DNA of 64,000 bases from the IMG/VR virus record IMGVR_UViG_3300045988_168118. One strand, given 5' to 3'. The translations under genes were made by a program, and so were the position numbers. The stretch comes from a virus. The notes under the pieces were generated by a model, which was not told where the DNA came from, ran no database searches, and saw only the letters and a list, made by a program, of their open reading frames with translations. The first letter of the stretch is position 1. Each line of letters starts with the position of its first letter. Shown piece by piece: positions 1 through 63,228 of the stretch.

Positions 1-120
1 CAGCTCGATTTCATGGCTGAGAAAGTTAAGTGCTTCTTCTTTTGGTTCAAAGTCACTTTCTTCCAGAAAAGCTCTAATGGTTTCAAACCAATCTTTTTTT
101 GTCATTTTGTCTTTCATCAT
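1..120 (-). CDS. Early hypothetical protein, N-terminal part only (gene runs past the window start). Paralog of the 1389..1802 product.
   Basis: Minus-strand translation from ATG at 120 reads MKDKMTKKDWFETIRAFLEESDFEPKEEALNFLSHEIEL, similar to MTKKDFFKLLAGIVEKTEDFDKKTETLDFINHEIELL in 1389..1802. AGAGG lies 8 nt upstream and a consensus promoter sits at 155-183. Confidence 0.4.
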   Translation of the reverse strand, partial: MMKDKMTKKDWFETIRAFLEESDFEPKEEALNFLSHEIEL

Positions 121-154
121 ATTCATTACCTCTTTCTTTCTTTTGATATATTTA

Positions 155-183
155 TTATAGCATACTTTTTTGTTTTTGTCAAT
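155..183 (-). promoter_or_regulatory. Sigma-70-type promoter (TTGACA-17-TATAAT), first copy of a 75-nt duplicated promoter-leader cassette (127-200).
   Basis: On the minus strand, ttgaca at 183-178 and tataat at 160-155 with a 17-nt spacer. The cassette is near-identical to 409-483. Confidence 0.6.
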
Positions 184-213
184 TACTTTTTTATTTTTTT
201 TCTTTTCTGGTGC

Positions 214-402
214 TTACTTAATGTAAGCACCAGCAATAGACTTAACAGAGCCATCAGCATTGAAAAAGATAACATTATTCTGGATAACGTTAATACCTTT
301 ATTCTTTGCAAAATTTCTGAACACAAAGTCTGTATTCCAGAGTTTGATAAAATCAGCTTTTCTCATGCTTGCAAAACCTTTTGTGTAATTCATTGTTCTC
401 AT
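214..402 (-). CDS. Early hypothetical protein, 62 aa, MRTMNYTKGF...
   Basis: The ORF-track start at 492 lies upstream of the promoter. The usable start is ATG at 402, 9 nt after AGAGG and downstream of the 436-464 promoter. Confidence 0.45.
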   Translation of the reverse strand: MRTMNYTKGFASMRKADFIKLWNTDFVFRNFAKNKGINVIQNNVIFFNADGSVKSIAGAYIK

Positions 403-435
403 AGTCAATACCTCTTTCTTTCTTTTGATATATTT

Positions 436-464
436 ATTATAGCATACTTTTTTGCTTTTGTCAA
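436..464 (-). promoter_or_regulatory. Sigma-70-type promoter, second copy of the duplicated cassette (409-483).
   Basis: ttgaca at 464-459 and tataat at 441-436 on the minus strand, 17-nt spacer, followed by the leader gaaagaaagagg. Confidence 0.6.
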
Positions 465-749
465 TTACTTTTTTATTTTTTCTTGTTCCCACAAAACTAC
501 TTGAGTCATAAGCTTACCTTCTTCAATCCAGGCAAGAGAAAAGCTTACAATATTTGGTTGTTTTGGATTAAGATATTCAATAAAATCAATATCAAATTCA
601 AACTCCCATCCTTCTTTTTGATAGGATTCTAATAAATCATTAATAGCATTATAGCTATAATTATAGCTATAACTATCACTATTCCAAAAACCACCTTTTT
701 CTAAATCCGCTTCTAAGCGGTCTAAAATTTTTTCTAACATAAGTACCAC
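465..749 (-). CDS. Early hypothetical protein, 94 aa, acidic with YSYNYSYN.
   Basis: ORF with GGAAGGTGG RBS. Its own promoter is at 787-815. Confidence 0.5.
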   Translation of the reverse strand: MVLMLEKILDRLEADLEKGGFWNSDSYSYNYSYNAINDLLESYQKEGWEFEFDIDFIEYLNPKQPNIVSFSLAWIEEGKLMTQVVLWEQEKIKK

Positions 750-786
750 CTTCCTATTTCTTATTTCTTATTTATTTTATGTATAC

Positions 787-815
787 ATTATATCAAAAGA
801 AAAAATAAAAGTCAA
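787..815 (-). promoter_or_regulatory. Sigma-70-type promoter (TTGACT-17-TATAAT).
   Basis: Reverse complement of 787-815 reads ttgacttttattttttcttttgatataat. Confidence 0.5.
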
Positions 816-1006
816 TGGCATTTTACACAAAATATAATAAAATATTTTGTCTATTTTGACTATTGACAGGTTTAGCATTGTGCATAATAGAGAAAATTGG
901 CGGATTTTGATATAAAATTTTGTTCATTTTACCTATTGACAGAGATTTTTGTGCAAAACGGAGAATTTTGGGATAAAAAGTTTTTTATTTTTGTGCATTT
1001 TTTCTC

Positions 1007-1035
1007 TTGACAAAATCGTCAGCGTATGGTATAAT
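1007..1035 (+). promoter_or_regulatory. Plus-strand consensus promoter (TTGACA 1007-1012, TGgTATAAT 1027-1035), left half of face-to-face promoter unit A.
   Basis: 17-nt spacer and extended -10. Upstream tgtgcattttttctcttgacaaaat is identical to the upstream context of unit C at 4485-4509. No plus-strand gene lies downstream. Confidence 0.55.
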
Positions 1036-1044
1036 GGATATTTC

Positions 1045-1067
1045 GGTCGCCTTGATCCAAGGCGACC
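1045..1067. other. GC-rich hairpin ggtcgcc-ttgatccaa-ggcgacc centred between the two facing promoters of unit A.
   Basis: 7-bp perfect stem. Equivalent hairpins with different sequence but the same position occur in units B (4353-4375) and C (4533-4566). Confidence 0.55.
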
Positions 1068-1071
1068 CGCT

Positions 1072-1100
1072 ATTATACCACACTTTCGGGTGCTTGTCAA
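1072..1100 (-). promoter_or_regulatory. Minus-strand consensus promoter, right half of unit A.
   Basis: Reverse complement reads ttgacaagcacccgaaagtgtggtataat: -35 at 1100-1095, 17-nt spacer, extended -10 TGgTATAAT. Confidence 0.5.
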
Positions 1101-1290
1101 TAGGCAAAATAAACAAAATAAAAAATTTTTTGAGCCTTATTTTTGTTACATTTTCACAAAATTATAGACTGGGACTCTTTGTGCAACAATACCAAAATTA
1201 TAAAAATTTTTTGGCTATTTTTGTAATTTATGTGCATTGACTTTTTTGTTCTCTGGTATTTTTAAATAAAAAACATCCCTCCAGCAGCGG

Positions 1291-1328
1291 ATTTTTTGTG
1301 CAAAAAGTAGAAAAAAAATGCACAAAAA
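1291..1328. repeat. Inverted repeat TTTGTGCA-N20-TGCACAAA, operator-like.
   Basis: ttttttgtgcaaaaagtagaaaaaaaatgcacaaaaaagg. Half-sites recur throughout the islands at 890-1340, 4020-4660 and 7680-7930. Confidence 0.5.
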
Positions 1329-1339
1329 AGGAGGACGGA

Positions 1340-1375
1340 TTTTGTGTAATCCGCCCTCTTGACAAGGTTTATAAG
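1340..1375 (-). terminator. Weak hairpin (cggatt-ttgtgt-aatccg) then U-rich tract on the minus strand, downstream of gene 1389..1802.
   Basis: Minus strand reads cggattacacaaaatccg tcctcctttttt. Confidence 0.3.
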
Positions 1376-1388
1376 TTACTTTTTAGTT

Positions 1389-1802
1389 TTACTCTTCTTT
1401 CTCAGTTTCTTCTTCTTTTGCAAGAGAAAAGTAAGGAACTCTTTTTTCAACTGTCCTGACCACTTTGCCGGCTTCAATCATTTTTTTCAACAGTGCAGAC
1501 AACTTCTGAGAAGAAAGCTTACTCATTTCGGCGTTCTCTTTAATCATTGTAGTTACCGTGACAGGTTTACCAAACAGCTCTAAGGCAATTCCAATAAGTT
1601 CCATAAGCTCCTCATTTTCTTTAATGTGAGCTGTTTTCTTTTTGCCTGGTGCTGAAGATTTCTTATTTAACAGTTCAATCTCGTGATTGATAAAGTCAAG
1701 TGTTTCTGTTTTCTTGTCAAAATCTTCTGTTTTTTCTACGATACCTGCCAGCAGTTTAAAAAAGTCTTTTTTTGTCATTTTGTTTGTGTTTGTCATAATC
1801 AA
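1389..1802 (-). CDS. Early hypothetical protein, 137 aa, possible C-terminal winged-helix region. Paralog of the gene at the window start.
   Basis: ORF with AAAAGGGGAA RBS. Promoter at 1919-1947. A GC-rich leader hairpin gatggtc/gaccatc sits at 1855-1877. Confidence 0.5.
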   Translation of the reverse strand: MIMTNTNKMTKKDFFKLLAGIVEKTEDFDKKTETLDFINHEIELLNKKSSAPGKKKTAHIKENEELMELIGIALELFGKPVTVTTMIKENAEMSKLSSQKLSALLKKMIEAGKVVRTVEKRVPYFSLAKEEETEKEE

Positions 1803-1918
1803 ATTCCCCTTTTCTTTCTTTTAAAATTTTTTTGGTGGCTTGCGGTCGGTGGTCGATGGTCGATTTTGCTGACCATCCGAACCGCTGAAAATATTTTATT
1901 TATTGATTTGCTACAATG

Positions 1919-1947
1919 TTATTATACTACTTTTCTTTGCTATTGTC
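1919..1947 (-). promoter_or_regulatory. Sigma-70-type promoter (TTGACA-17-TATAAT).
   Basis: Reverse complement reads ttgacaatagcaaagaaaagtagtataat. Confidence 0.55.
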
Positions 1948-1957
1948 AAGCATTTTT

Positions 1958-2332
1958 TTATTTTTTCTTTTGTGGTCTATGTTTGATTAACGAAATTGAA
2001 TATTCCGCACCGCCAATTTTGAAAGTAATTTCTTTTTGCGGATTTGCGATTGTCACACTTTCAAAGTTCATTTCCTCAACTTCTTTCAAGTGACTTGCCA
2101 AAATTTCAATGATTTTGACTTTTTCCGCGTCCAATTTTACCTCACGTTTTTTCGTGCTTTTTTTCTCTGGTGTACTCTGAACATAGTTCTTAATGCCTTT
2201 AGCCTTAATTTCCATTTCCGCCATTTCAAGAGCTTCCTCTTTAGTTACCGGTTCTCCATCCGCTTCAAATTCTTTCATCAACTTAATAGCAAGCTTTTCG
2301 ATTGCATCTGCGGTCACTGTTGTTTTAGCCAT
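1958..2332 (-). CDS. Early hypothetical protein, 124 aa, Lys/Glu-rich.
   Basis: ORF. The 63-nt promoter-leader cassette lies upstream at 2358-2419. Confidence 0.5.
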   Translation of the reverse strand: MAKTTVTADAIEKLAIKLMKEFEADGEPVTKEEALEMAEMEIKAKGIKNYVQSTPEKKSTKKREVKLDAEKVKIIEILASHLKEVEEMNFESVTIANPQKEITFKIGGAEYSISLIKHRPQKKK

Positions 2333-2380
2333 GTTATATCACATCCTTTTTAAAATTTACTATTAACTTGTTACAATGGT

Positions 2381-2409
2381 ATTATATCGCATCTTAGCTT
2401 AAAAGTCAA
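2381..2409 (-). promoter_or_regulatory. Sigma-70-type promoter (TTGACT-17-TATAAT), copy 1 of a 63-nt exactly duplicated cassette (2358-2419 = 3149-3210).
   Basis: Placed by the 791-nt offset from the identical copy at 3172-3200. The conserved leader contains the palindrome TTGTAACAA. Confidence 0.55.
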
Positions 2410-3116
2410 GCACTTTCGTGTAATTCTTTTCTTTTTTTCTGCGGCAGTCTCCAACATGACGGCTTAATACTTCTATCCATTTTTTTATGCTGGTCAAAAC
2501 ATTTTTTCATAATTTCAATTTCAATTTTTACATCTTCTAAGCCTGTATGAGATTCTACAAAATCAATATTCTTTTTAATATATTTATAGCATACCTCAGC
2601 GTTAGTTAAAAGATTGCCTTTTTCAGACTCAAATCCGTTTTTCTCAGCAAATTTGATATAGGTGTTTGTACTTAAAATCATCTGACAAGCCATGTTCCAA
2701 ATACAAAAATATTCTGTACCATAAGGGAAAAACCAGCGAATAAAACTTTTGCTATGGTATCTAATAGCATTGTTTAATGCTTTTCTATCAAAATTCATAT
2801 TGTAAGCACCAACTTTTTTCACATTATATTCTCTCATGTCTGCAAACATCTGTTTTCTAATATTGAAAATGCTTTTCATGGTTCTTTTTCCGCTTTTTAA
2901 ATCATCCCAGTATTTCGGAATTTTTTCAGCGTAGTAGGCACTATTCATAGCTTCTTTCAAGTCAATAAATGTCTCAGCGACTACAAAGCTTCTTTCGGTG
3001 ACAATGTTACCGTGTCTATCTGCAATAGCATAGCCAATATCATAAGGGATTGGTTCATTTACACTATTCGCAGTTTCTGTATCCAATACCATGAAAAACT
3101 CTTTTCTTCTACTCAT
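2406..3116 (-). CDS. DEDDh-family 3'-5' exonuclease (DnaQ/epsilon, oligoribonuclease-like).
   Basis: Exo I motif VLDTETAN, Exo II GAYNMNFDRKAL and Exo III HTGLEDV are all present. The likely true start is ATG at 3116 (MSRRKEFF), 9 nt after GAGGA. The track start at 3131 is a TTG. Confidence 0.6.
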   Translation of the reverse strand: MSRRKEFFMVLDTETANSVNEPIPYDIGYAIADRHGNIVTERSFVVAETFIDLKEAMNSAYYAEKIPKYWDDLKSGKRTMKSIFNIRKQMFADMREYNVKKVGAYNMNFDRKALNNAIRYHSKSFIRWFFPYGTEYFCIWNMACQMILSTNTYIKFAEKNGFESEKGNLLTNAEVCYKYIKKNIDFVESHTGLEDVKIEIEIMKKCFDQHKKMDRSIKPSCWRLPQKKRKELHESA

Positions 3117-3171
3117 TTTTGATTTCCTCAACTTTCATTTATTTTTTTTACTATTAACTTGTTACAATGGT

Positions 3172-3200
3172 ATTATATCGCATCTTAGCTTAAAAGTCAA
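3172..3200 (-). promoter_or_regulatory. Sigma-70-type promoter, copy 2 of the 63-nt duplicated cassette.
   Basis: Reverse complement reads cttgacttttaagctaagatgcgatataat. Identical to the copy upstream of 1958..2332. Confidence 0.55.
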
Positions 3201-3210
3201 GCACTTTCGT

Positions 3211-3390
3211 TTATTTTTTAAAATCTTTTAACTGTTGGTTCGTAGACAACTCTTTAATTTTATATTTATGCAACCTATTGTTTAAACAATGAGTGCATGA
3301 ACCATGATTTCTGCATGACATTGACTTTGCTTTTGCTCTGCGGTATTCTTTTCTATGTTCTTTACCACTTCTGATTGCTTTATCCATCAT
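3211..3390 (-). CDS. Small basic Cys/His-rich protein, 59 aa (MMDKAIRSGKEHRKEYRRAKAKSMSCRNHGSCTHCLNNRLHKYKIKELSTNQQLKDFKK), possibly zinc-binding. Not in the ORF track because it is under 60 aa.
   Basis: Read manually from the minus strand. AGGTGA lies 8 nt upstream of ATG at 3390 and the stop TAA is at 3213-3211. Confidence 0.35.
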   Translation of the reverse strand: MMDKAIRSGKEHRKEYRRAKAKSMSCRNHGSCTHCLNNRLHKYKIKELSTNQQLKDFKK

Positions 3391-3407
3391 ATTCTATCAC
3401 CTACTTT

Positions 3408-3881
3408 CTATAAAAAATTTTTTAAGATTTCCATAATATTATTTACATCAAAAGCACCTTTTCCCCACTCGATTCGATTTTTTTCTTCATCATCAAAAAG
3501 CCACCCCTTGCAATCAACGACAGTACTTTTTGGTGTACCATAGTTTACAATTTTGATTTCATCCCATTTAATACTAGGTAAGTGTTTTTCAAGCCATGCA
3601 AGTTTTACACTTGTTACCGCCGTATTATAAGAAGCTGACCCGCTTTTACTTAACCAGCTTACAATACCAATTCTATAGCCATTAGCTTGTAACTTGTGAA
3701 GCACTCTTGCGAAAACTGAAAAATTAAAAAGTGGTTTTGCTACTTTGTATGGTGTAGTGTCTTCTTTTTCCAAATATGCTAACCAGTTTTCCACGCCGTA
3801 GAAGTTAGCAAGTGTGCCGTCCATGTCAAAATAAATAGTTCCCTTTGTGCTCATCATTTCTTTAATTGTATTATCCATCAT
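3408..3881 (-). CDS. HAD-superfamily 5'(3')-deoxyribonucleotidase-like protein (NT5C family).
   Basis: HAD motif I in YFDMDGTLANF, as in the cytosolic deoxyribonucleotidase VDMDGVLADF. The track start at 3893 is a TTG. The real start is probably the ATG-ATG at 3881/3878. Confidence 0.55.
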   Translation of the reverse strand: MMDNTIKEMMSTKGTIYFDMDGTLANFYGVENWLAYLEKEDTTPYKVAKPLFNFSVFARVLHKLQANGYRIGIVSWLSKSGSASYNTAVTSVKLAWLEKHLPSIKWDEIKIVNYGTPKSTVVDCKGWLFDDEEKNRIEWGKGAFDVNNIMEILKNFL

Positions 3882-3993
3882 AATAATTATCAATCCTTTC
3901 TTTTTTGATTATCGCAAGTGCCTTGCGACCGACCGCTCATTATGTAAGCTTTGCTTTATTTCTGATTTAAGTTTAATGTCCTTTGACAAGTAT

Positions 3994-4022
3994 ATATTAC
4001 TACATCTTAGCGAAAAAGTCAA
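3994..4022 (-). promoter_or_regulatory. Probable promoter (TTGACT-17-TAATAT) for 3408..3881, with leader hairpin cgcaag-gca-cttgcg at about 3925-3945.
   Basis: Reverse complement reads ttgactttttcgctaagatgtagtaatat. Confidence 0.4.
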
Positions 4023-4319
4023 ATTTATTTTTTATTGTGCAAAAGTGATGAAATTTTATATAAAAATCATAGTATTTTTGTCAAAATATACAAATGTAGA
4101 AAAATAATGCGGATTTAGGCGGATTCTTGTGCATTTTGCTACCTTAAATATCACATATTGTGTTTCTGCGTGTCAAAAAAGGTATGATTTTTTATTAAAA
4201 TTTCGTCACTTTGCACAAGGTGTAGAAAATTTTGGTATTATTTTATTAAATTTTGTGCATTTTGTATACCATGTCAAAAAATGGGATTTTTTTAATTTAT
4301 TTTTTGTGCAAATTGCCTA

Positions 4320-4348
4320 TTGACAAAAAGGTGCTAGATGTGGTATAA
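4320..4348 (+). promoter_or_regulatory. Plus-strand consensus promoter, left half of unit B.
   Basis: gcctattgaca-aaaaggtgctagatgtgg-tataat: -35 at 4320-4325, -10 at 4343-4348, extended TGg. Preceded by ttttgtgcaaattgcctattgaca. Confidence 0.55.
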
Positions 4349-4394
4349 TAAAATTTCGGGGTGCCCCGACCCCGAACGGACTTTGCCCTCTTTC

Positions 4395-4423
4395 ATTATA
4401 ACATACTCGAGCCACCTTGTCAA
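4395..4423 (-). promoter_or_regulatory. Minus-strand consensus promoter, right half of unit B.
   Basis: Reverse complement reads ttgacaaggtggctcgagtatgttataat (TGtTATAAT). It is followed on the minus strand by gaaagaggg and then the hairpin at 4353-4375 (ttcgggg..ccccgaa). Confidence 0.5.
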
Positions 4424-4501
4424 GAGTTTTTTTCAAAAAAAATGCACAAATTTTGGGATAAAAATTTTGAAAAATTTGTGCATTTTTTCTCTTGACAAAA
4501 T

Positions 4502-4530
4502 GTCTCAACTATGTTATAATGGAAGGCTCG
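4502..4530 (+). promoter_or_regulatory. Plus-strand consensus promoter, left half of unit C.
   Basis: ttgacaaaatgtctcaactatgttataat. Its upstream 25 nt are identical to unit A. Confidence 0.55.
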
Positions 4531-4568
4531 GCTCGCATTGACTGCTCGCGAGCCGGCTATTATAACAC

Positions 4569-4597
4569 ATTTTCCGCGACTTGTCAACCCCTTTTTA
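4569..4597 (-). promoter_or_regulatory. Minus-strand consensus promoter, right half of unit C.
   Basis: Reverse complement reads ttgacaagtcgcggaaaatgtgttataat. The hairpin ggctcgc-attgactgctc-gcgagcc (4533-4566) abuts both -10 elements. Confidence 0.5.
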
Positions 4598-4663
4598 AAA
4601 AATTTTTTATTTTCGTCATTTTGCACAAAAATAAAATTCAGCATTTTGCACAAAAAACAAAAG

Positions 4664-4700
4664 TCTAATTTACTTAGACTTTTGTTATAAAAATTTTTTC
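4664..4700. terminator. Bidirectional rho-independent terminator (caaaagtcta-atttact-tagacttttg with U-runs on both strands).
   Basis: 10-bp stem. It ends the plus-strand transcript from the unit C promoter, roughly 190 nt with no ATG, and the minus-strand gene 4751..4903. Confidence 0.55.
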
Positions 4701-4750
4701 TGCTTATGACTAGTTATTTTCATTATTTATTATTAAATTCACGTGATTTC

Positions 4751-4903
4751 TTATTTTTTTCGTTTCATTATTGCTTCATAAGCAATTTTTACTATTTCTT
4801 TTGAAATGTTTTGATTCTCTGCTATTTTACAGAATATAATTACTGTGTCATTTTCAAATCCTTTTACTTGAATCATTTTATCCATCATCTCTGTCCTTGT
4901 CAT
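4751..4903 (-). CDS. Small early protein, 50 aa (MTRTEMMDKMIQVKGFENDTVIIFCKIAENQNISKEIVKIAYEAIMKRKK). Not in the ORF track.
   Basis: Consensus promoter 4926-4954 and RBS AGAGAGG upstream of ATG at 4903. Confidence 0.35.
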   Translation of the reverse strand: MTRTEMMDKMIQVKGFENDTVIIFCKIAENQNISKEIVKIAYEAIMKRKK

Positions 4904-4925
4904 TATTGTTTTCCTCTCTTTCTTT

Positions 4926-4954
4926 AACTGTCTTTATTATATCACAAGAAGCTG
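4926..4954 (-). promoter_or_regulatory. Sigma-70-type promoter with conserved AAAGAGAGG leader.
   Basis: Reverse complement reads ttgacaaaatcagcttcttgtgatataat. Confidence 0.55.
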
Positions 4955-4971
4955 ATTTTGTCAACCCCTTT

Positions 4972-5205
4972 TTATAAAATTCCTTCAATTTTACAACATC
5001 TTCTGCAAGCATTAATACAATCATTCCATGCGTCATCATCATTTGCGTACTGCGTCAAGATTCTCTCATCCCACCCATCTTCTAACCCACAAGTAAACCA
5101 AACGTCAATGACAATGTCTTCGCTAATATTTTCTCTGATAAAAACATCCATCTGTCTAAGAAGATTCTTTCTAATTCTAACTATCTCTTTTCTTGATACG
5201 CTCAT
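4972..5205 (-). CDS. Early Cys-rich small protein, 77 aa (MSVSRKEIVRIRKNLLRQMDVFIRENISEDIV...CINACRRCCKIEGIL). Paralog of 5222..5509.
   Basis: The start is reassigned to ATG at 5205, after promoter 5236-5264 and RBS AGAGAGG. The track extends it upstream to 5346 through the promoter. Confidence 0.5.
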   Translation of the reverse strand: MSVSRKEIVRIRKNLLRQMDVFIRENISEDIVIDVWFTCGLEDGWDERILTQYANDDDAWNDCINACRRCCKIEGIL

Positions 5206-5221
5206 TTTATTTACCTCTCTT

Positions 5222-5509
5222 TCATTTGATACATTTATTATACCATATTTCCGACTTTTTGTCAACCCCTTTTTTAAAAAAATCAATTCCTTCAATTTCA
5301 AAACATTTGCGATAAGCGTTAATACAATTACACCAAGAATCATCATCGCTTACACACTTTGTTAGAATATCATCATTCCATCCATCTTTAAACAGGGGAA
5401 GCCAAACATTAGTTATTACGTCTTCACTAATGTATTTTCTGATGAATGAATTCATTCGTCTGAGATAATACTTTTTAATTTCAATTATTTCATCTCTTGA
5501 AAACTCCAT
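5222..5509 (-). CDS. Early Cys-rich small protein, 95 aa. Paralog of 4972..5205. Its C-terminus reads through the next promoter.
   Basis: ISEDVITNVWLPLFKDGWNDDILTKCVSDDDSWCNCINAYRKCFEIEG aligns with ISEDIVIDVWFTCGLEDGWDERILTQYANDDDAWNDCINACRRCCKIEG. Promoter 5537-5565. Confidence 0.5.
   Translation of the reverse strand: MEFSRDEIIEIKKYYLRRMNSFIRKYISEDVITNVWLPLFKDGWNDDILTKCVSDDDSWCNCINAYRKCFEIEGIDFFKKGVDKKSEIWYNKCIK
5236..5264 (-). promoter_or_regulatory. Sigma-70-type promoter followed by the ATCAAATGAAAGAGAGG leader.
   Basis: Reverse complement reads ttgacaaaaagtcggaaatatggtataat. Confidence 0.55.
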
Positions 5510-5536
5510 TTTTCCTCTCTTTCATTTGATATATTT

Positions 5537-5565
5537 ATTATACTATAGGTCTTGACTTTTGTCAA
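5537..5565 (-). promoter_or_regulatory. Sigma-70-type promoter whose -35 lies in a perfect palindrome ggtcttgac-tttt-gtcaagacc (5546-5567).
   Basis: Reverse complement reads ttgacaaaagtcaagacctatagtataat, followed by the atcaaatgaaagagagg leader. Confidence 0.55.
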
Positions 5566-5584
5566 GACCTATTTTAAATTAGTT

Positions 5585-5746
5585 TTAAAGAAGTTTTTGA
5601 AGTTTGCCGTCAGCATCAAATTGAAAGCCAATGTTTTCACCATAAGAAGAAAGCTCAGCTTCAAAATAATCCTTTTCCTCATAGCAAATCTCTATGTCGG
5701 CTTTTTTAAAAATCTGTAATAAAATTTCTTTATCTGTTTTTTTCAT
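5585..5746 (-). CDS. Small early protein, 53 aa (MKKTDKEILLQIFKKADIEICYEEKDYFEAELSSYGENIGFQFDADGKLQKLL). Not in the ORF track.
   Basis: Promoter 5783-5811 (TTGACA-17-TATACT) and RBS AAGAGG before ATG at 5746. Confidence 0.3.
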   Translation of the reverse strand: MKKTDKEILLQIFKKADIEICYEEKDYFEAELSSYGENIGFQFDADGKLQKLL

Positions 5747-5782
5747 TTTTATCAACCTCTTTCTCTTTCATTTGATATATTA

Positions 5783-5811
5783 AGTATAGCAGATATTTTT
5801 TATTTTGTCAA
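5783..5811 (-). promoter_or_regulatory. Sigma-70-type promoter (TTGACA-17-TATACT) with ATCAAATGAAAGAGAAAGAGG leader.
   Basis: Reverse complement of 5783-5811. Confidence 0.45.
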
Positions 5812-5873
5812 GCCTTTTTTAAAAAAAGGAAGATTTTTTATCTTCCTTTTTTCCCCATAACTCCATCTTGTTT

Positions 5874-6035
5874 TTATCTCAGTAATCTTAATAAATAGTT
5901 ATTTTCATGCTCTTTCAAAAAAGCGTTAATTTCTTCTATTGTTTCAGCGTAAATCTCGCCTGTCTCAGTGTCTACCAACATCAATTTTTTACTTCCTAAA
6001 AATAATCCTAAATCTAACATATTTAAGCCCTCCAT
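5874..6035 (-). CDS. Tiny ORF, about 53 aa (MEGLNMLDLGLFLGSKKLMLVDTETGEIYAETIEEINAFLKEHENNYLLRLLR), translationally coupled to the ORF upstream of it.
   Basis: TAATG stop/start overlap at 6033-6037. An internal ATG at 6020 is preceded by GGAGGG. Confidence 0.25.
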   Translation of the reverse strand: MEGLNMLDLGLFLGSKKLMLVDTETGEIYAETIEEINAFLKEHENNYLLRLLR

Positions 6036-6154
6036 TAAGAAATTTTTACCAGATAACCGTTTGTATTTTTTTCTACTGAAAAAATGTATTGATTATCTTT
6101 TAAGTATTTTTTTACAGTTTCAAATGCTTTTCGAGTTGTCAGTAACATTGTCAT
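6035..6154 (-). CDS. Tiny ORF, 39 aa (MTMLLTTRKAFETVKKYLKDNQYIFSVEKNTNGYLVKIS).
   Basis: Promoter 6187-6215 (TTGACA-17-TATCAT) and RBS GAGAGG before ATG at 6154. Confidence 0.25.
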   Translation of the reverse strand: MTMLLTTRKAFETVKKYLKDNQYIFSVEKNTNGYLVKIS

Positions 6155-6186
6155 ATTTCTTTACCTCTCTTTCATTTGATAATACT

Positions 6187-6215
6187 ATGATACTATATTT
6201 CCTTGCTTTTGTCAA
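6187..6215 (-). promoter_or_regulatory. Sigma-70-type promoter with ATCAAATGAAAGAGAGG leader.
   Basis: Reverse complement reads ttgacaaaagcaaggaaatatagtatcat. Confidence 0.45.
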
Positions 6216-6264
6216 GCATTTTAGGAAAATTTCTAAAGATTTTTTTATGCGGATTTCCACTGAA

Positions 6265-6330
6265 AAAACCTGAACTTAAGGAGATTGTAGGTGAACCGAC
6301 TCCAAAACTGTCAAGTTCGGGAGTCCCTTT
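6265..6330. terminator. Compound Y-shaped hairpin (cctgaactt...aagttcggg enclosing ggag/ctcc) with U-runs on both strands. Bidirectional terminator or insulator between early transcription units.
   Basis: 9-bp outer stem with one G-U pair, then gggagtcccttttttattt on the plus strand and ttttttcag on the minus strand. Confidence 0.4.
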
Positions 6331-6600
6331 TTTATTTAAGGAATGATTCTAAAGCCTTATAGCATAAATCAGCGTTTTCTTTATCTTTTATGCTAGTACC
6401 TTTAGAAAAGTCATTCATAGCGGCTGTTAGTAATTCCGGCACTGAAATAAATTCAAATACCAGTTGTAAAGCCGCCAATTCATTAAGATTGACTTTTTTT
6501 CATCGGTTCTTTCCTATCTCCTTTTTAAATATTTTATTTTCTTTACATTATTATTATATCAAATTTTTTAATAAAATTCAAAAAAGATACTTTATCTAAA

Positions 6601-6640
6601 TAAGCAAAGAAAAGGGCTGAACCTATTCCGCCCTTTTCCC
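6601..6640. terminator. Rho-independent terminator for the minus-strand gene 6650..6913 (agggc-N12-gccct, U-runs on both sides).
   Basis: Minus strand reads agggcggaataggttcagccct tttctttgcttattt. Confidence 0.45.
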
Positions 6641-6649
6641 GCTTTTCCG

Positions 6650-6913
6650 CTATCCTATTATCTCTGCATCTGTAATAATATCATCTGTCACACTATCAGT
6701 CCCTAAAGAATCCATGTATAATTTAACTTTATCTCTTGCTTTAAAACCGTCCCCGTAGAAACTCCATACATGCCCGTAGCTATCCATAACAACCACTTCA
6801 TTATTAAAAGAGCTAATCACTTTAGCTTCTCTTGTATACTTAGTAAAGCTACCAAAACCGCAAATACTACTTAAAGTTGCACTTACTATTAATCCTAAAA
6901 TCACCTTTTTCAT
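6650..6913 (-). CDS. Small secreted or lipoprotein-like early protein, 87 aa from MKKVILGLIVSATLSSICG.
   Basis: N-terminal signal-peptide-like hydrophobic stretch ending in Cys. The start is reassigned to ATG at 6913, because the track start is a TTG. Probably co-transcribed with 6919..7197. Confidence 0.45.
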   Translation of the reverse strand: MKKVILGLIVSATLSSICGFGSFTKYTREAKVISSFNNEVVVMDSYGHVWSFYGDGFKARDKVKLYMDSLGTDSVTDDIITDAEIIG

Positions 6914-6918
6914 TATGT

Positions 6919-7197
6919 CTAACTCCAACCTCTTTCTTTCTTAATCTTTTCGTATCTTCTTTTTTCTTCTTCTTCAATCTTCTTTTTGTCGTATACTCTA
7001 ACTTTCATTCTAGTATATCCGTCTCTTTTTAAACACCAACGTTCTGTTTTACGTTGTATTACTATCTTGTCGATAGCCCTTTGCTGTACCTCTTGCTTAT
7101 GAGTGTTATAATATTTGATACTCTCAATTTCTAATAAAGTACTTATTGGTCTGTACTTATTTGTTACACTAAACAAAGTGCATTGAATTGTTATCAT
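6919..7197 (-). CDS. Early hypothetical basic protein, 92 aa, with KKKIEEEEKRRYEKIKKERGW C-terminus.
   Basis: ORF with RBS AAAGAGAGGTGA. Promoter 7223-7251. Confidence 0.45.
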   Translation of the reverse strand: MITIQCTLFSVTNKYRPISTLLEIESIKYYNTHKQEVQQRAIDKIVIQRKTERWCLKRDGYTRMKVRVYDKKKIEEEEKRRYEKIKKERGWS

Positions 7198-7222
7198 CTT
7201 ATCACCTCTCTTTTCAAGTATT

Positions 7223-7251
7223 ATTATACTACCTTATTATACCATTGTCAA
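7223..7251 (-). promoter_or_regulatory. Sigma-70-type promoter (TTGACA-17-TATAAT).
   Basis: Reverse complement reads ttgacaatggtataataaggtagtataat. Confidence 0.5.
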
Positions 7252-7262
7252 GCTTTATTTAC

Positions 7263-7640
7263 AGTATTTTTATTTATTTTAATGCATATTTACTCATGTT
7301 ATTAAGATTAATAGTTAGTTTTAAATATATATATTTATATCTTTTTTATAAATAGTAAAATAAAATATAATATAAATATTATCATACTATTTTATTTAGT
7401 ATTATTTTATAAGCTTATTATTATTATTATTATACTATCTTATTATAATTATTATAAGATATTACAGTACCAATGTTAACATTATTATCATTATATTTCT
7501 TCTTTATATATAGTTATAATTGATAAGATTAACAATAATATAAGATAATGTTATTGTTAATTATATTTATGTATTGTATTGTTATAATATTGTATTATTA
7601 TTATTATTATTATTATCTTTCTTTTGTCTTAAGCTTAACC
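7263..7640. repeat. A/T-only tract of about 380 bp and roughly 10% GC, with (ATT)n/(TTA)n microsatellites at 7417-7434 and 7596-7618 and short TATA/ATAAT repeats. No ORF.
   Basis: Seen directly. Stop codons are frequent in all frames. Confidence 0.7.
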
Positions 7641-7679
7641 TCTCATTATAGCACCTTTAGCTCATTCTGTCAATAGACA

Positions 7680-7935
7680 TTTTACACAATTTTTCCTTTA
7701 AAACTTTGTGCAGATTGCCTATTGACATTTTTTGTCTATTGACATTTTACACAAAAATGAGAATATATTTTTGTACACTTTTACTATTGACAGGGTTTGT
7801 CAATAGACATAATGCACAAAATTTTCCACGTATTTTTGTACAATTTTACCTATTGACAAGTTCATTTTAGGAAAATATCTTTGTGCATTTTTTACAAAAA
7901 TTTAGCCAAAAATTTGTGCATTTTGCCTATTGACA
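7680..7935. promoter_or_regulatory. Cluster of at least 6 copies of the 9-10-mer (C/T)CTATTGACA(G/A) in both orientations, interleaved with TTGTGCA/TGCACAA half-sites. Includes the palindrome ctattgacagggtttgtcaatag. Iteron-like or operator array.
   Basis: Copies at about 7727, 7745, 7786, 7800 (reverse), 7850 and 7922. Most lack a good -10 at 17 nt, so they are unlikely all to be promoters. The triple composite tttgtgcaNNttgcctattgaca occurs at 4300, 7717 and 7910. Confidence 0.5.
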
Positions 7936-8451
7936 GGCTTCTCGGAGCGTTGCGAAAGTGTACGCTCCGACGATAGATGGCAAGCTACCAATAGCCAATA
8001 AAAATTCTAATCTTCTTGCTTTATTTTAGTTATTTAAAGAATTTATTTTATTAGTTTAACTCTTTCTCCTCTTTGCTTAAAATAATGTGTTCAAAACTCT
8101 TCTGAACAAAAAGCATATCCTCTTTGGAAAATGATTTGAAAAATTATTTGTTAGGCGGTGTCTTGTTGCTTCTTGCTCAAAAGAGATGCTCAAACTACAG
8201 ACCATACTTAAACATAATGCCGGGGTATATTAAAGGATTAAAATTTTTTACTTTTATAAAAAGATAGTGTTCTCCACAATTCTCTCTCCAAAAATTTTTT
8301 CAAATCTAAAAGTCTAAAAATAAAATCAAAAAACGAGAATTAAAAATCTCTCCAAAAAATTTTTTTAAACAAATTAAAATAAAATAAAATAAAGAGGATT
8401 TTAAAAAAATAAAAATATTTCTCATTTTCTCTTTAAAAACTACCCGCGATA

Positions 8452-9204
8452 TCAAACAAGGCTCCGAAAAGCGTCTAAATTAGATCCATTAGGGATAGCA
8501 AAAATTATTTTTTTAAAAATATAATTATTAGATAATTTCATAAATATCTTTTTAACTTCATTAGGATCTTGACCAAAAGCTCCGCATCCAAAAGCTCCTA
8601 AGATTAGAACATCAATTTTATTTTTCGCCGCAATGTCTAAAATAAAAGAGATTCTTTCTTTTAAAGCCTTAGTATTTTCTTCATCTGTTATCCCATTACG
8701 CTTAGCTTCTTTTTTATTCGGGGCTGCACAAGTAATAATATCACAATTATAAAAATCTTCAAAAAGAATGTTTGGACTATAAATCGCTCTATTCCAATAC
8801 AAACCGCGATTTATTAAGTTTTTATTTTCTCCATAAAAATCTTCTCTTTGCCGCCACAAAATATTATAAAGAATAGACTTATGACATAAGCTTCCTTCTT
8901 GAGTACTACTTCCTTTTAAAAAGCCTCCGCCAGGATATTTAAAAGATGCAAAATTAAGTGCGGCAATCTTACTATCAGGAAATTCAGATACAGCTTTTTT
9001 AATAGCATTAACAGTATCAGTTTCCCATATTTCATAATTAAGATTTTTTTCATTTATTTTCTTCATTTTATTTGCAATAGAACCTGGCACAAAACCACTA
9101 TAATATTTAGTTCTTGCGTTACACCATGCGATTTTATCTGAATATTCTTTTTCCATTTTATAAAAATGATTTATGGCTTGAATAGCTCTTTCTTTTTTAT
9201 TCAT
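8452..9204 (-). CDS. Bacterial-type poly(ADP-ribose) glycohydrolase / macrodomain hydrolase (DUF2263, TIGR02452 family).
   Basis: PARG signature NFASFKYPGGGFLKGSSTQEGSLCHKSILY (GGG-X7-QE) plus the diphosphate loop GAFGCGAFGQDP. It closely mirrors the NFANPxxPGGGFLxGAxAQEExLCRxSxLY and GAWGCGVFGN motifs of bacterial PARGs. The second catalytic Glu is replaced, giving QEG rather than QEE. Confidence 0.65.
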   Translation of the reverse strand: MNKKERAIQAINHFYKMEKEYSDKIAWCNARTKYYSGFVPGSIANKMKKINEKNLNYEIWETDTVNAIKKAVSEFPDSKIAALNFASFKYPGGGFLKGSSTQEGSLCHKSILYNILWRQREDFYGENKNLINRGLYWNRAIYSPNILFEDFYNCDIITCAAPNKKEAKRNGITDEENTKALKERISFILDIAAKNKIDVLILGAFGCGAFGQDPNEVKKIFMKLSNNYIFKKIIFAIPNGSNLDAFRSLV

Positions 9205-9224
9205 CTATTAACATCCTCGTTTTA

Positions 9225-9413
9225 TTAGAACATCGCATTTGCTTGTTCATAATATTTTAATTCTTGAATCCAAGCGATTGGAATTACCATTTCCGCTTTA
9301 GCATATCTTTCTATAGCATCCATAATCTCATTTCTTCTACTATTAATTACTTCTAATCTAAAAGCTTCACGCGGAACCAAACCTGCAACTGTCTTTTTTG
9401 CTTCATTATTCAT
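9225..9413 (-). CDS. Hypothetical protein, 62 aa.
   Basis: ORF packed tightly between the PARG-like and DUF2493 genes, with 2-nt and 20-nt gaps. Confidence 0.4.
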   Translation of the reverse strand: MNNEAKKTVAGLVPREAFRLEVINSRRNEIMDAIERYAKAEMVIPIAWIQELKYYEQANAMF

Positions 9414-9414
9414 A

Positions 9415-9762
9415 TTATTTTCCTCCTATTTTAATTACTTTACCATGCTTTCCATTCATTTTCATTTTCATAATAATTTTTCTAATTATTGCATCTTTTC
9501 CGTCATAAAAAAATATACCAAAATCAATATTTTCTACCATTTTCTGAATTAATTTATCTATGTTGCGATCAAATACATATTCAATAGGAGCACCATTATT
9601 TTCTGCCCATATTTTTCCAATAGACTCCGAGAGCTTCTTCTCCGTATTCCCGCAAACAACAGTAAATAAATAACATTGCGTTTCGCGGATAAAATCTTCC
9701 ATAGTTGCGGAGACTAGGCGATTATCTGCGAAACCGCGACTTCCAAGAATACTAATTTTCAT
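9415..9762 (-). CDS. DUF2493 / SLOG-superfamily (DprA/LOG-like Rossmann) protein.
   Basis: ILGSRGF...VVCGNTEKKLSESIGKIWAENNGAPIEYVF...FFYDGKDAIIRKIIMKMKMNGKHGKVIKI matches the DUF2493 pattern vtGsRdf...vhGgarGaD...waae.gvp.e.f...fwdGkSrGTkhmielakk.gkpv.vi. RBS AAGAGGAAAAAG. Confidence 0.5.
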   Translation of the reverse strand: MKISILGSRGFADNRLVSATMEDFIRETQCYLFTVVCGNTEKKLSESIGKIWAENNGAPIEYVFDRNIDKLIQKMVENIDFGIFFYDGKDAIIRKIIMKMKMNGKHGKVIKIGGK

Positions 9763-9843
9763 TTCTTTTTCCTCTTGTTTTATTTATAAAATAATTATAA
9801 CAAAAATTTTTTAAAAAATCCAATTAAAGTGCTTTAATCAAAT

Positions 9844-9872
9844 TTGACAAAAAAATTTTTTTGTGGTATAAT
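9844..9872 (+). promoter_or_regulatory. Consensus promoter (TTGACA-17-TGgTATAAT) for the plus-strand morphogenesis block. It diverges from the minus-strand promoter of the SLOG-PARG operon, TGtTATAAT at about 9795-9803.
   Basis: tttgacaaaaaaatttttttgtggtataat, 27 nt upstream of RBS AAGGAG and the ATG at 9900. Confidence 0.6.
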
Positions 9873-9899
9873 ATAATTGTAAACTAGAAAGGAGAAATT

Positions 9900-26280: not shown

Positions 26281-26342
26281 CAAAAGAAAAATTTTATAGT
26301 ATAATATTCTTATAAGATGAGACAAAAGGAGAAATAAATAAA

Positions 26343-26876
26343 ATGAAAGTAAGTTATGCAAATTTAAAATTAAAAACTAAAGATGAAATTAAAACTTTTA
26401 ATTTTAATAATACAGAAATAGAAGTTAAACAATATTTACCTATTGAAGATAAATATGATTTAGTTATGATTACTTTACAAAAAGCAGAAGAAAATGGTAT
26501 TTATAATGCTTTAAAATTAGATATGTATTTTCATTTGCATTTAGTTTATATGTATACTAATTTAAGTTTTACAGAAAAACAAAAAGAGAATGAAATGAAA
26601 ATTTATGATACTTTAGAGAGCAATGGTTTTATTGATAAAATGATTGAAGTTATTCCTGAAGAAGAATATAATGCTTTATTCACTTTTATGGATGAAATAA
26701 TGCTTAATACTTTAAATTATACCAATACCGCGGGAGCCGTTATTCAAAGTATTATAAATGATTTACCTAAAAACGCAAAAGTTGCTAAAGATATAGTTGA
26801 TTCTTTTGATAAAGAAAAATATCAAGAGGTAATTGAATTTGCGAAAGCGGCTAATGGAAATCGTCCAATTGGGTAA
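26343..26876 (+). CDS. Hypothetical protein, 177 aa, possibly a tail assembly chaperone.
   Basis: Sits immediately upstream of the tape-measure gene. No frameshift partner is evident. Confidence 0.35.
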   Translation: MKVSYANLKLKTKDEIKTFNFNNTEIEVKQYLPIEDKYDLVMITLQKAEENGIYNALKLDMYFHLHLVYMYTNLSFTEKQKENEMKIYDTLESNGFIDKMIEVIPEEEYNALFTFMDEIMLNTLNYTNTAGAVIQSIINDLPKNAKVAKDIVDSFDKEKYQEVIEFAKAANGNRPIG

Positions 26877-54293: not shown

Positions 54294-54322
54294 ATTATAA
54301 CATATTATTCTAACTCTGTCAA
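54294..54322 (-). promoter_or_regulatory. Consensus promoter (TTGACA-17-TGtTATAAT) for the resolvase gene.
   Basis: Reverse complement reads ttgacagagttagaataatatgttataat. Confidence 0.55.
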
Positions 54323-63144: not shown

Positions 63145-63228
63145 TTTAATTAACCCCGCTTATTTGTATAATACTATTTCTATTAAATTAAATAAATAAA
63201 ATTATTTATACTATTAAAATATATTATA

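Follow-up and report, generated by a model that had tools for sequence, protein, structure and literature searches.

Perfect promoters facing each other across GC-rich hairpins in the early region of a phAss-1-like phage

The first 10 kb of the viral DNA studied here (IMG/VR record IMGVR_UViG_3300045988_168118; "the window" denotes the complete stretch of 64,000 nucleotides) hold three rightward promoters, each opposed by a perfect minus-strand promoter with a GC-rich hairpin between the two, an arrangement that was missed in the earlier note on this DNA. Judging from the comparison of related contigs, the arrangement recurs in the early regions of a large set of uncultured phages of the gut, the phAss-1-like phages, probably as a control unit, and keeps a fixed orientation relative to the genes. 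Our favored, albeit tentative, reading is that the two promoters of a pair exclude each other and yield short counter-transcripts with a 5' hairpin, with local control of transcription as the outcome. Short regulatory RNAs are, on the sequence features described below, a more likely product of the unit than long antisense transcripts.

The rightward promoters, termed P_L, are located on the plus strand at 1007-1035, 4320-4349 and 4492-4520 and match the sigma-70/sigmaA-type consensus in 12/12 positions (TTGACA-N17/18-TGnTATAAT, with an 18-bp spacer in the 4320 promoter), as do the facing promoters, termed P_R, at 1100, 4423 and 4587 on the minus strand. The earlier note had reported at least three full-consensus rightward promoters, at 1007, 4320 and 4502; the first two positions are confirmed and the third is corrected by 10 nt to 4492. 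All six promoters of the three pairs carry the extended -10 TG that is typical of strong Firmicute promoters. The host is uncultured; for phAss-1, Clostridia have been inferred (PMC10607447). The pattern TTGACA-N16-18-TATAAT occurs 18 times in the window as opposed to 0.25 times expected from shuffles, and 15 of these 18 perfect promoters reside within 1-9900. This excess is far above what chance would give, and the three rightward promoters can be taken as real. A perfect sigmaA-type promoter at 9844-9872 on the plus strand serves a phage sigma-factor gene (9900-11063); no other plus-strand consensus promoter of the first 10 kb has a gene downstream. Every credible gene between 1 and 9800 is indeed encoded on the minus strand, as had been stated before: both GC skew and AT skew stay below zero until about 10 kb, and Pfam/PHROG matches are confined to minus-strand ORFs, namely genes for an exonuclease-like protein (2406-3131), an NT5C-like deoxyribonucleotidase (3408-3893), PARG (8452-9204) and, as a weak match, SLOG (9415-9762). 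A plus-strand ORF of 163 aa (13-504) has no Pfam/PHROG family match and covers two repeated minus-strand promoter/RBS cassettes.

All three pairs lie inside long non-coding spacers that are not filled by any ORF in code 11 or in codes that reassign TAG or TGA to an amino acid, and a search of Rfam returned no family at threshold. The -10 boxes within the pairs are 36, 45 and 38 bp apart, the predicted transcription starts about 22-30 bp, and the GC-rich Watson-Crick hairpin between them (-14 to -19 kcal/mol) sits at the predicted 5' end of both opposed transcripts. A TTGTGCA element is found upstream of -35 boxes on both the P_L and the P_R side. In the first unit, P_L1 (991-1035, plus strand) consists of TTGTGCA at 991-997, the -35 box TTGACA at 1007-1012 and TGg followed by the -10 box TATAAT at 1030-1035, with a predicted start around 1042. 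Hairpin 1 (1045-1067; GGTCGCCTTG-ATC-CAAGGCGACC, GC-rich and Watson-Crick) lies 9 nt past the -10 box of P_L1 and 4 nt past that of P_R1 (1072-1119, minus strand, co-directional with the genes; -10 at 1077-1072, -35 at 1100-1095, upstream TTTGTTTATTTTGCCTA element, predicted start around 1066). Back-to-back with P_L1 is the gene-proximal minus-strand promoter of gene 465-741 (787-838; TTGACT-17-TATAAT with an upstream TTTTGTGTAAAATGCCA element). On the other side, the terminator hairpin of gene 1389-1802 (1331-1358) is strong on the minus strand; on the plus strand, the sequence after it is UUGACAAGG, which would stop the P_L1 RNA only weakly.

The two remaining units share one spacer. P_L2 (4304-4349, plus strand) combines TTGTGCA at 4304-4310, TATTGACA at 4318-4325, an 18-nt spacer and a -10 box at 4344-4349 (predicted start around 4356); it is followed by the GC-rich hairpin 2 (4355-4376; TTCGGGGT-GCCCCG-ACCCCGAA) and faces P_R2 (4395-4449, minus strand; -10 at 4400-4395, -35 at 4423-4418, TTGTGCA at 4449-4443). 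P_L3 (4476-4520, plus strand; TTGTGCA at 4476-4482, -35 at 4492-4497, -10 at 4515-4520, predicted start around 4527) is preceded by 53 nt that are 89% identical to those upstream of P_L1 (repeat family D10) and faces P_R3 (4559-4587, minus strand; -10 at 4564-4559, -35 at 4587-4582) across the GC-rich hairpin 3 (4525-4558), the interior of which is inverted in strain L007 and 13 bp shorter in strain L002, in both cases between identical flanks. The terminator hairpin of gene 4751-4903 (4656-4686) is roughly symmetric (AACAAA...TTTGTT). To the left, a gene-proximal minus-strand promoter read from the sequence (3992-4020; TTGACT-17-TAATAT) precedes the NT5C-like gene. Along the direction of the genes, the order is upstream early-gene terminator, P_R, hairpin, P_L and usually a third promoter, P_gene; P_R is co-directional with the genes, P_L faces it and P_gene serves the next early gene.

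Units with TTGTGCA are also present in roughly 30 further IMG/VR contigs of phAss-1-like phages, the GC content of which is 28-48%. Among the 105 distinct face-to-face perfect promoter pairs found in a scan of IMG/VR, 38 fall into this class, with hairpins of GC 0.5-0.76 in contigs of 28-48% GC; this count includes the phage's own copies and drops to 34 without them. The hairpin-unit class is not represented among 120 face-to-face pairs taken from bacterial genomes. The gap between the -10 boxes amounts to 36-38 bp in 21/34 units, and the leader before the hairpin is some 7-9 nt long and AT-rich on the P_L side and 2-4 nt long on the P_R side. Class-unit stems comprise 5-16 bp (mostly 8-12), are strictly Watson-Crick and equally stable on both strands, and enclose loops of 3-13 nt. 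The motif TGT[GAT][CT]A, which lay outside the pattern used for searching, is present upstream of the -35 box in 12/34 and 16/34 class units as opposed to 1/69 and 2/69 of the other pairs. The early genes flanking the units are the same across relatives. With P_L recognized by the AT-rich leader of 7-9 nt before the hairpin, early-gene homologs are antisense to this promoter type (plus strand here) in 57 of 60 matches from 28 loci. The suggestion that the antisense orientation is programmed therefore stands, because the orientation is fixed across related phages. The leftward gene usually ends 38-90 nt past P_R, with a hairpin plus T/A runs in between, and in compact relatives the neighboring terminator follows only about 20-30 nt past the facing promoter. 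A combination of TTGTGCA-N8-TATTGACA and hairpin is kept with one or both -10 boxes lost in L014 (4471), L017 (788/887), L018 (839) and at 7915 in the window. As some relatives lack -10 boxes, what is conserved may be, at its core, a hairpin with a protein-binding site and not a promoter pair.

A spacer further to the right contains, at 7706-7935, a group of clustered TTGTRYA-N7-8-TATTGACA elements that point in either direction and lack -10 boxes. Copies of TATTGACA start at 7720, 7737, 7785, 7851 and 7928 on the plus strand and at 7668 and 7798 on the minus strand; none of the plus-strand copies is followed by a -10 box, the best candidate being TTGACA-17-TATCTT at 7853-7881 (10/12). A perfect minus-strand promoter, P7673 (7645-7690, with an upstream TTGTGTA-N8-TATTGACA element), fires into an AT-rich tract at 7260-7640, and a GC-rich hairpin 7 nt after the TATTGACA copy at 7928-7935 (7942-7970) completes a -10-less unit variant, also seen in L004 and L014-L018. 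The TTGACA elements noted earlier at 7733-7922 thus exist but lack a usable -10 box; sigmaA transcription across the PARG/SLOG operon (8452-9762) is therefore not predicted, contrary to what had been proposed.

For the complete units, we propose that only one RNA polymerase at a time could use a pair, such that P_L and P_R would compete by occlusion and collision. P_L would give rise to a short non-coding counter-transcript of about 100-330 nt with a 5' hairpin that stops or pauses at the neighboring terminator hairpin; its firing would throttle P_R and keep polymerases of the upstream gene from reading through. Expression of the early gene downstream would then depend on the gene's own promoter and on any factor acting on TTGTGCA, and control would be local at the unit instead of a blanket antisense cover of the early genes. 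The predicted length follows from the terminator hairpin of the next gene that succeeds each P_L: predicted P_L3 and P_L2 RNAs ending at 4656-4686 measure about 165 and 335 nt, and P_L RNAs would carry a hairpin at the 5' end, a terminator hairpin at the 3' end and no ORF, nothing coding being found between P_L and the next terminator hairpin. They would overlap only the first 22-30 nt or so of the P_R RNA plus the terminator of the upstream gene, with no translation start, coding end or attenuator of a target in the overlap. Full consensus in both promoters would be unexpected if P_L did no more than damp P_R. TTGTGCA is present upstream of both, and no binding protein or discriminating regulator was identified. 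The plus-strand U-tracts after 1331-1358 and 4656-4686 are weak, so some plus-strand read-through antisense to 1389-1802 and 4751-4903 may occur. A good U-tract or T-run on the P_L side of the neighboring terminator is present in about half of the related units; 10/22 terminators next to units are bidirectional as compared to 45/115 other terminators of the same loci, which is no excess and gives no sign of selection for short P_L RNAs.

These weak stops bear on the proposal of the earlier note that long plus-strand antisense transcripts collide or pair with the early RNAs (1389-3881, 4751-7197, PARG/SLOG) and shut them off. The conserved antisense orientation fits this proposal, as do the lack of a good P_L-side U-tract in roughly half of the related units and the outcome of terminator prediction, which flagged no canonical plus-strand terminator between P1007 and 1843 or after P4492. 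Still, we regard it as unlikely. Of the three promoters, only P1007 points toward 1389-3881; P4320 and P4492 lie beyond 3881 and are directed away from it, so they are not antisense to this region, and the 7733-7922 elements lack -10 boxes. Strong hairpins stand ahead of each next gene, only 20-30 nt past the facing promoter in compact relatives. Taken together, the long antisense shutoff of 1389-3881 and PARG/SLOG is poorly supported. Moreover, all three promoters are full consensus and would be active from the start of infection alongside the early promoters, implying no delay and no need for the plus-strand activator that had been invoked. Rather doubtful, too, is a DNA-level element, in which the hairpin (as a cruciform) and the TTGTGCA-N8-TATTGACA sites are the functional core, the -35-like boxes are part of the site and -10 boxes are optional; it could take the form of a transcription-activated replication origin or priming site or of an iteron-like site for a phage protein. 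Such an element is in line with the -10-less variants that retain motif and hairpin, with the exclusively Watson-Crick stems of equal stability on either strand, with a hairpin interior that is inverted or shortened between strains of 97% identity, as a hairpin formed in DNA would predict, and with the third spacer and its seven TATTGACA copies, AT-rich tract of about 380 bp and inward-firing promoter. However, no initiator was identified, several copies exist per genome, the DNA downstream of P_L and P_R is GC-rich and not an unwinding element, and perfect extended -10 promoters on either side would be surprising by-products. The fit to a transcription-activated origin of the T4 oriF/oriG or lactococcal c2 ori type is poor, as an AT-rich unwinding element is absent after P_L and P_R and only P7673 fires into an AT-rich tract.

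It is quite unlikely that the head-on pairs serve as a sink or roadblock that stably holds host sigmaA polymerase, the RNAs having no role, and that either insulates neighboring early operons in both directions or titrates polymerase from the host. Every recognition element matches the consensus, TG and the GG(A) discriminator of P_L among them, the first transcribed stretch forms a GC-rich hairpin, and the units are placed exactly between a terminator and the next promoter; but three units are few for titration, and elongating polymerases usually dislodge promoter-bound ones. A single-strand promoter resembling Frpo or sso, in which the folded strand pairs -35 with -35' and -10 with -10' and host polymerase primes either strand, appears very improbable. 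Predicted DNA folds do pair -10 with -10' in 3/3 units and -35 with -35' in 2/3 minimum-energy folds (in unit 3 partly and in the centroid only), with the GC hairpin at the tip and z-scores of -3.6 to -5.4. Yet the spacers are unpaired and the pairing of the boxes is a trivial result of two inverted consensus promoters; no single-stranded stage is known for a large tailed dsDNA phage. In addition, phAss-1 has its own primase gene (PMC10607447). The hairpins also differ from N4-type hairpin promoters (5-7 bp stem, 3-nt loop, virion RNA polymerase), as they lie downstream of ordinary -35/-10 boxes and vary more widely in stem and loop size. A chance or compositional artefact of an AT-rich genome can draw on a GC content of about 30% and the commonness of weak promoter-like matches (94 versus 58 expected), but is ruled out by the excess of perfect promoters over the shuffled expectation, the 3/3 pairing, the conservation across contigs of 28-48% GC and the fixed orientation.

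If the units indeed work as mutually exclusive promoter pairs, they resemble coliphage 186 pR/pL, P2 Pe/Pc, the Ecl18kI restriction-modification promoters (PMC2760811) and pCF10 prgQ/prgX, where closely facing promoters interfere. Compared with the 186 type, a mere 22-30 bp or so separate the predicted starts, full consensus is found in both promoters and a GC hairpin occupies the overlap; the antisense promoter has no gene, genes for an alternative program not having been found behind P_L, and several units per genome lie between co-directional early genes rather than forming a lysis/lysogeny switch. By prediction, the units are also similar to lambda oop, P22 sar, IS10 RNA-OUT and the pT181/pIP501 counter-transcripts, in which a strong promoter between or inside co-directional genes yields a short non-coding hairpin RNA directed at the sense transcripts. 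Differing from these, the overlap comprises the start of the P_R RNA and the upstream terminator instead of an RBS or attenuator, and conservation of the hairpin sequence is lacking even among the copies of one genome.

Stem-loops at the 5' terminus act as stabilizers in the E. coli ompA and B. subtilis aprE leaders, and early transcripts of Bacillus phage SP82 contain hairpin processing sites. The likeness consists in a stable stem-loop a few nt from the predicted 5' end of early phage transcripts with strong expression, with the difference that one palindromic hairpin would serve both opposed transcripts here. The SPO1 host-takeover module and the T5 pre-early region contain many consensus host promoters and small early genes, each with promoter and terminator. 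Hairpin-centered head-on promoter pairs have, as far as we know and searched, not been described for SPO1 or T5, and no protein or DNA similarity to SPO1/T5-type phages was found in the early region studied here. The likeness is one of layout, with an early deoxyribonucleotidase (compare T5 dmp), an exonuclease-like protein and long repeat-rich non-coding stretches.

The rightward consensus promoters in the leftward gene block at 1-9800 are, with high confidence, functional parts of a conserved unit in which two perfect promoters face each other across a GC-rich hairpin. The window originates from a large tailed phage with a GC content of about 30%, in which genes reside on the minus strand at 1-9800, on the plus strand from 9900 to about 53.7 kb (encoding a sigma factor, terminase, portal, a 2842-aa protein and others) and again on the minus strand beyond. 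A near-identity search found no deposited phage matching 1-9800. Of the named phages, the uncultured gut phage phAss-1 (OQ749652; portal identity 39%) is the nearest relative; GenBank classifies it under 'code 15 clade', and its authors have suggested Clostridia as hosts (PMC10607447). Two IMG/VR contigs, L002 and L007, represent strains of the window phage with about 97% identity. Relatives of phAss-1 reportedly read TAG as sense; 41 long ORFs of the window end with TAA (28), TGA (9) or TAG (4), code 11 leaves its very long ORFs uninterrupted, and a tRNA search found no tRNA genes in the window.

Between 1 and 9800 every credible gene lies on the minus strand, family matches are confined to minus-strand ORFs, and GC skew and AT skew are negative as far as about 10 kb. 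A long plus-strand ORF (13-504) is without family match and spans two repeated minus-strand promoter/RBS cassettes. Family matches identify an NT5C-like deoxyribonucleotidase (3408-3893, minus), PARG (8452-9204, minus), more weakly SLOG (9415-9762, minus), and an exonuclease-like protein of 241 aa (2406-3131, minus; PHROG 192 'DNA polymerase exonuclease subunit', E 3e-6), in which DnaQ-like exonuclease motifs (DTET..., NFD, HTGLED) are recognizable by eye. The exonuclease and deoxyribonucleotidase genes are the most widely conserved early genes, and their combination recalls the pre-early host-DNA degradation set of T5.

The window contains 18 perfect TTGACA-N16-18-TATAAT promoters, compared with 0.25 expected, and 15 of the 18 fall into the first 9.9 kb. 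Perfect host-type promoters beyond the early region are found at 26277-26305 (plus; inside the structural block, between ORFs 25099-26280 and 26343-26876), 54294-54322 (minus) and 63228-63257 (minus). On the plus strand of the early region, promoters at 1007-1035, 4320-4349 and 4492-4520 each carry an extended -10 TG, which confirms the observation, made in an earlier note, of plus-strand promoters among minus-strand genes; the positions 1007 and 4320 listed there are exact, while '4502' is a slip for 4492. The sigma-factor gene is served by a fourth perfect plus-strand promoter, at 9844, and the phage sigma factor is therefore an early product. This promoter is arranged back-to-back with a weaker minus-strand promoter, TTGGAT-18-TATAAT (about 9794-9823), of the SLOG/PARG operon. 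A repeated cassette of consensus promoter, leader and RBS (117-199, 399-481, 4905-4978, 5206-5279, 5506-5579, 5752-5825 and 6156-6229; 70-96% identity) stands before a series of small minus-strand genes that are partly paralogous (4978-5086 versus 5285-5393, 71%). The cassette promoters are devoid of the TTGTGCA element found in the head-on pairs, and the early promoters therefore comprise two classes or more.

All three rightward promoters are paired with perfect minus-strand partners, at 1100-1072, 4423-4395 and 4587-4559, the distance from -10 to -10 being 36, 45 and 38 bp, respectively, and the gap is filled by a GC-rich hairpin of -14 to -19 kcal/mol. The pairs are situated in the long non-coding spacers 790-1388 and 3894-4750. 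Read in gene direction, the order is upstream early gene, terminator, a promoter in gene direction (P_R), hairpin, and the antisense promoter (P_L) firing back toward P_R, followed by an inverted TTGTGCA pair, usually a gene-proximal promoter, and the next early gene. Unit 1 serves the gene at 465-741, which has a promoter of its own at 815-787. Units 2 and 3 form a tandem ahead of the deoxyribonucleotidase gene, which likewise has its own promoter, at 4020-3992. TTGTGCA, which precedes the -35 box of unit promoters by 8-9 nt, is present in 26 copies in the window versus 7.1 expected, and 19 of these lie in the three non-coding spacers (790-1388, 3894-4750 and 7198-8451); for TATTGACA the figures are 14 copies versus 3.3, with 11 in the same spacers. 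The binding sites of DnaA, Rex, CRP or sigma-54 do not appear to fit TTGTGCA. A reading of TTGTGCA and TATTGACA as -35 and -10 for the phage sigma is rejected, since 8 bp is not enough space between them and upstream regions of late genes lack the motif. A search of the spacers for ORFs, using code 11 or treating TAG or TGA as sense codons, gave nothing convincing, and tblastn 'hits' of spacer ORFs in relatives reflect frame-shifting DNA conservation of the promoters, not hidden genes. No Rfam family was detected in the spacers at gathering; at E<=1 only two sub-threshold plant miRNA-precursor models appeared, reflecting hairpin shape.

The sequence elements and geometry of the unit are conserved beyond the window phage. 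Two such pairs are present in phAss-1 and others in the more distant relatives L012 and L014, contigs found via the sigma factor. A pattern scan of IMG/VR for perfect face-to-face promoters returned at least 105 distinct pairs, of which at least 38 belong to a GC-hairpin class (at least 34 without the window phage's own copies). Here, both promoters bear the extended -10 TG, the middle has a GC fraction of 0.5-0.76 and a hairpin of -9 to -36 kcal/mol, and the contigs, mostly 80-197 kb in length, range from 28 to 48% GC. Several shared features lay outside the search pattern of the scan: an AT-rich leader (GGAAATTTC) of 7-9 nt between one -10 box and the stem, with 2-4 nt on the other side; TTTGTGCA preceding both -35 boxes; a AAATTTCGGGA motif further upstream; and, past the short-leader promoter, an A-run, a hairpin, often a T-run and then a gene 3' end. 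The stems are Watson-Crick paired and equally stable on both strands. Among the matches listed, the gap between the -10 boxes is 36-38 bp in 21 of 34 class units, and TGT[GAT][CT]A accompanies 12/34 and 16/34 class promoters versus 1/69 and 2/69 in other face-to-face pairs.

Homologues of the window's early genes are present in class loci; the 137-aa protein encoded at 1389-1802 is among those conserved beside the units. As an ORF-coverage test of flanking gene strand was too noisy in GC-richer loci, homologue orientation was used instead: 57 of 60 homologue matches at 28 loci are antisense to the long-leader promoter, which is the plus-strand one in all three window units. The antisense orientation is thus a conserved, directional property. 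In distant searches of a deposited phage collection with spacer 1 and the unit of locus L121, only phAss-1 aligned over the unit. Divergence between strains is mosaic (0.3-7.6% per segment), and low spacer divergence is therefore not decisive for selection. A corresponding scan of bacterial genomes gave at least 120 pairs, mostly clostridial. The 120 listed have AT-rich, operator-like middles and flank divergent genes, and none of them belongs to the GC-hairpin/TTGTGCA class. A separate, highly conserved face-to-face consensus pair with a 41-45-bp AT-rich middle (…ATAATGTATCAATATGGAA…) occurs in Ruminococcus MAGs (loci L139, L145, L149, L151, L153, L154, L170, L180, L187, L194, L208, L217, L218 and L235), and IMG/VR holds further recurrent families, e.g. 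one with a …ACGGTTTTCCGT… middle in L019, L036, L057 and L088. Head-on consensus pairs are thus common and belong to several sequence families.

How might the unit work? Open complexes formed at starts no more than about 22-30 bp from each other would have overlapping footprints, so that a unit should accommodate a single polymerase at any moment, bound in one of the two orientations. We tentatively propose, at somewhat less than even confidence, that P_L is a counter-promoter that would throttle P_R and oppose read-through from the upstream gene. Its predicted non-coding RNA would start 0-4 nt ahead of the hairpin, cross P_R and extend to the terminator hairpin of the upstream gene. The lengths predicted for P1007 and P4492 are about 320 and about 165 nt, compared with about 100-110 nt in compact relatives. 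In the window this model places plus-strand starts near 1042, 4356 and 4527, minus-strand starts near 1066, 4388 and 4552, and plus-strand RNA ends near 1360 and 4690. The hairpin would form the 5' stem-loop of both the P_L and the P_R RNA. The earlier note had instead envisaged programmed antisense transcription that could shut off early genes once a plus-strand activator appears, or bring about derepression. The antisense orientation it stressed is indeed conserved, but shutoff by long transcripts is only partly supported. Promoters at full consensus require no activator and should act at the same time as the early promoters; P4320 and P4492, taken to be antisense to 1389-3881, are both located to the right of 3881; and the elements at 7733-7922 are without -10 boxes. 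A hairpin before each next gene argues against long transcripts, but the plus-strand U-tracts of these hairpins are weak in the window, and unit-adjacent terminators are no more bidirectional than others in a test weakened by a stem-extension rule that absorbs A/T runs. Antisense read-through into 1389-1802 or 4751-4903 is therefore possible.

The unit may alternatively act at the DNA level, as a protein-bound, hairpin-centred element serving as origin or barrier. Such a role would accommodate copies at window 7915-7970 and in several relatives that keep TTGTGCA-N8-TATTGACA and, 4-9 nt later, a GC hairpin, with one or both -10 boxes missing; in L014-L016 such an element precedes the sigma gene by about 500 nt. 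It would also accommodate the fate of hairpin 3, whose interior (window 4525-4558) is exactly inverted in strain L007 (3960-3993) and 13 bp shorter in strain L002 (around 4620), the surrounding 440 bp being identical between strains save for homopolymer lengths. This suggests hairpin formation in DNA, e.g. through template switching or cruciform processing. The predicted refolding of the single-stranded unit into a promoter-like duplex is a trivial consequence of two inverted promoters. We consider it unlikely that RNA output is secondary and that the unit is primarily a hitherto undescribed cis-element of phAss-1-like gut phages, acting either as a polymerase-loaded cruciform for bidirectional priming or origin function or as a programmable two-way transcription barrier under a phage protein binding the TTGTGCA/TATTGACA arms, with the -10-less copies at 7706-7970 as its non-transcribing form. 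In the 1.25-kb non-coding spacer 7198-8451, an extremely AT-rich tract of about 380 bp (7260-7640) includes (ATT)n runs, and a perfect promoter at 7673 points into this tract. The spacer also has a GC hairpin at 7942-7970 and, within 7668-7935, seven TATTGACA or TTGTRYA-N8-TATTGACA copies facing either way. By its layout the spacer resembles iterons plus an unwinding element and is a candidate origin or regulatory hub. The further TTGACA elements noted earlier at 7733-7922 exist as TATTGACA copies, those on the plus strand lacking a usable -10. In the distant relatives L015 (1082-1440), L016 (318-420) and L014 (9460-9620), back-to-back TTTGTGCA-N8-AATTGACA and two GC hairpins are followed by about 120 nt of strongly T/G-rich sequence and a GC-richer, possibly structured segment. 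These arrays, just upstream of the sigma-factor gene, may correspond to window 7915-8450 or encode a non-coding RNA.

What looked odd at first, promoters firing rightward among leftward genes, becomes a defined, testable regulatory unit common to an abundant, uncultured clade of gut phages probably infecting Clostridia. The unit also provides a sequence signature by which their early regions can be located in metagenomes. It also cautions that an antisense consensus promoter need not mean long antisense RNA. If mutual exclusion holds true, the unit would constitute a natural, extreme case of transcriptional interference between two full-strength promoters starting about 22-30 bp apart, open to study in vitro with purified polymerase and without host culture. 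Literature searches returned nothing relevant describing the unit's architecture or motif. The closest functional counterparts of the unit among known systems are face-to-face interference switches such as 186 pR/pL, P2 Pe/Pc, Ecl18kI and pCF10, from which it differs in that no gene lies behind P_L. It is also akin to short cis-antisense RNAs such as lambda oop, P22 sar and IS10 RNA-OUT; unlike these, the predicted P_L RNA overlaps neither a translation start nor an attenuator.
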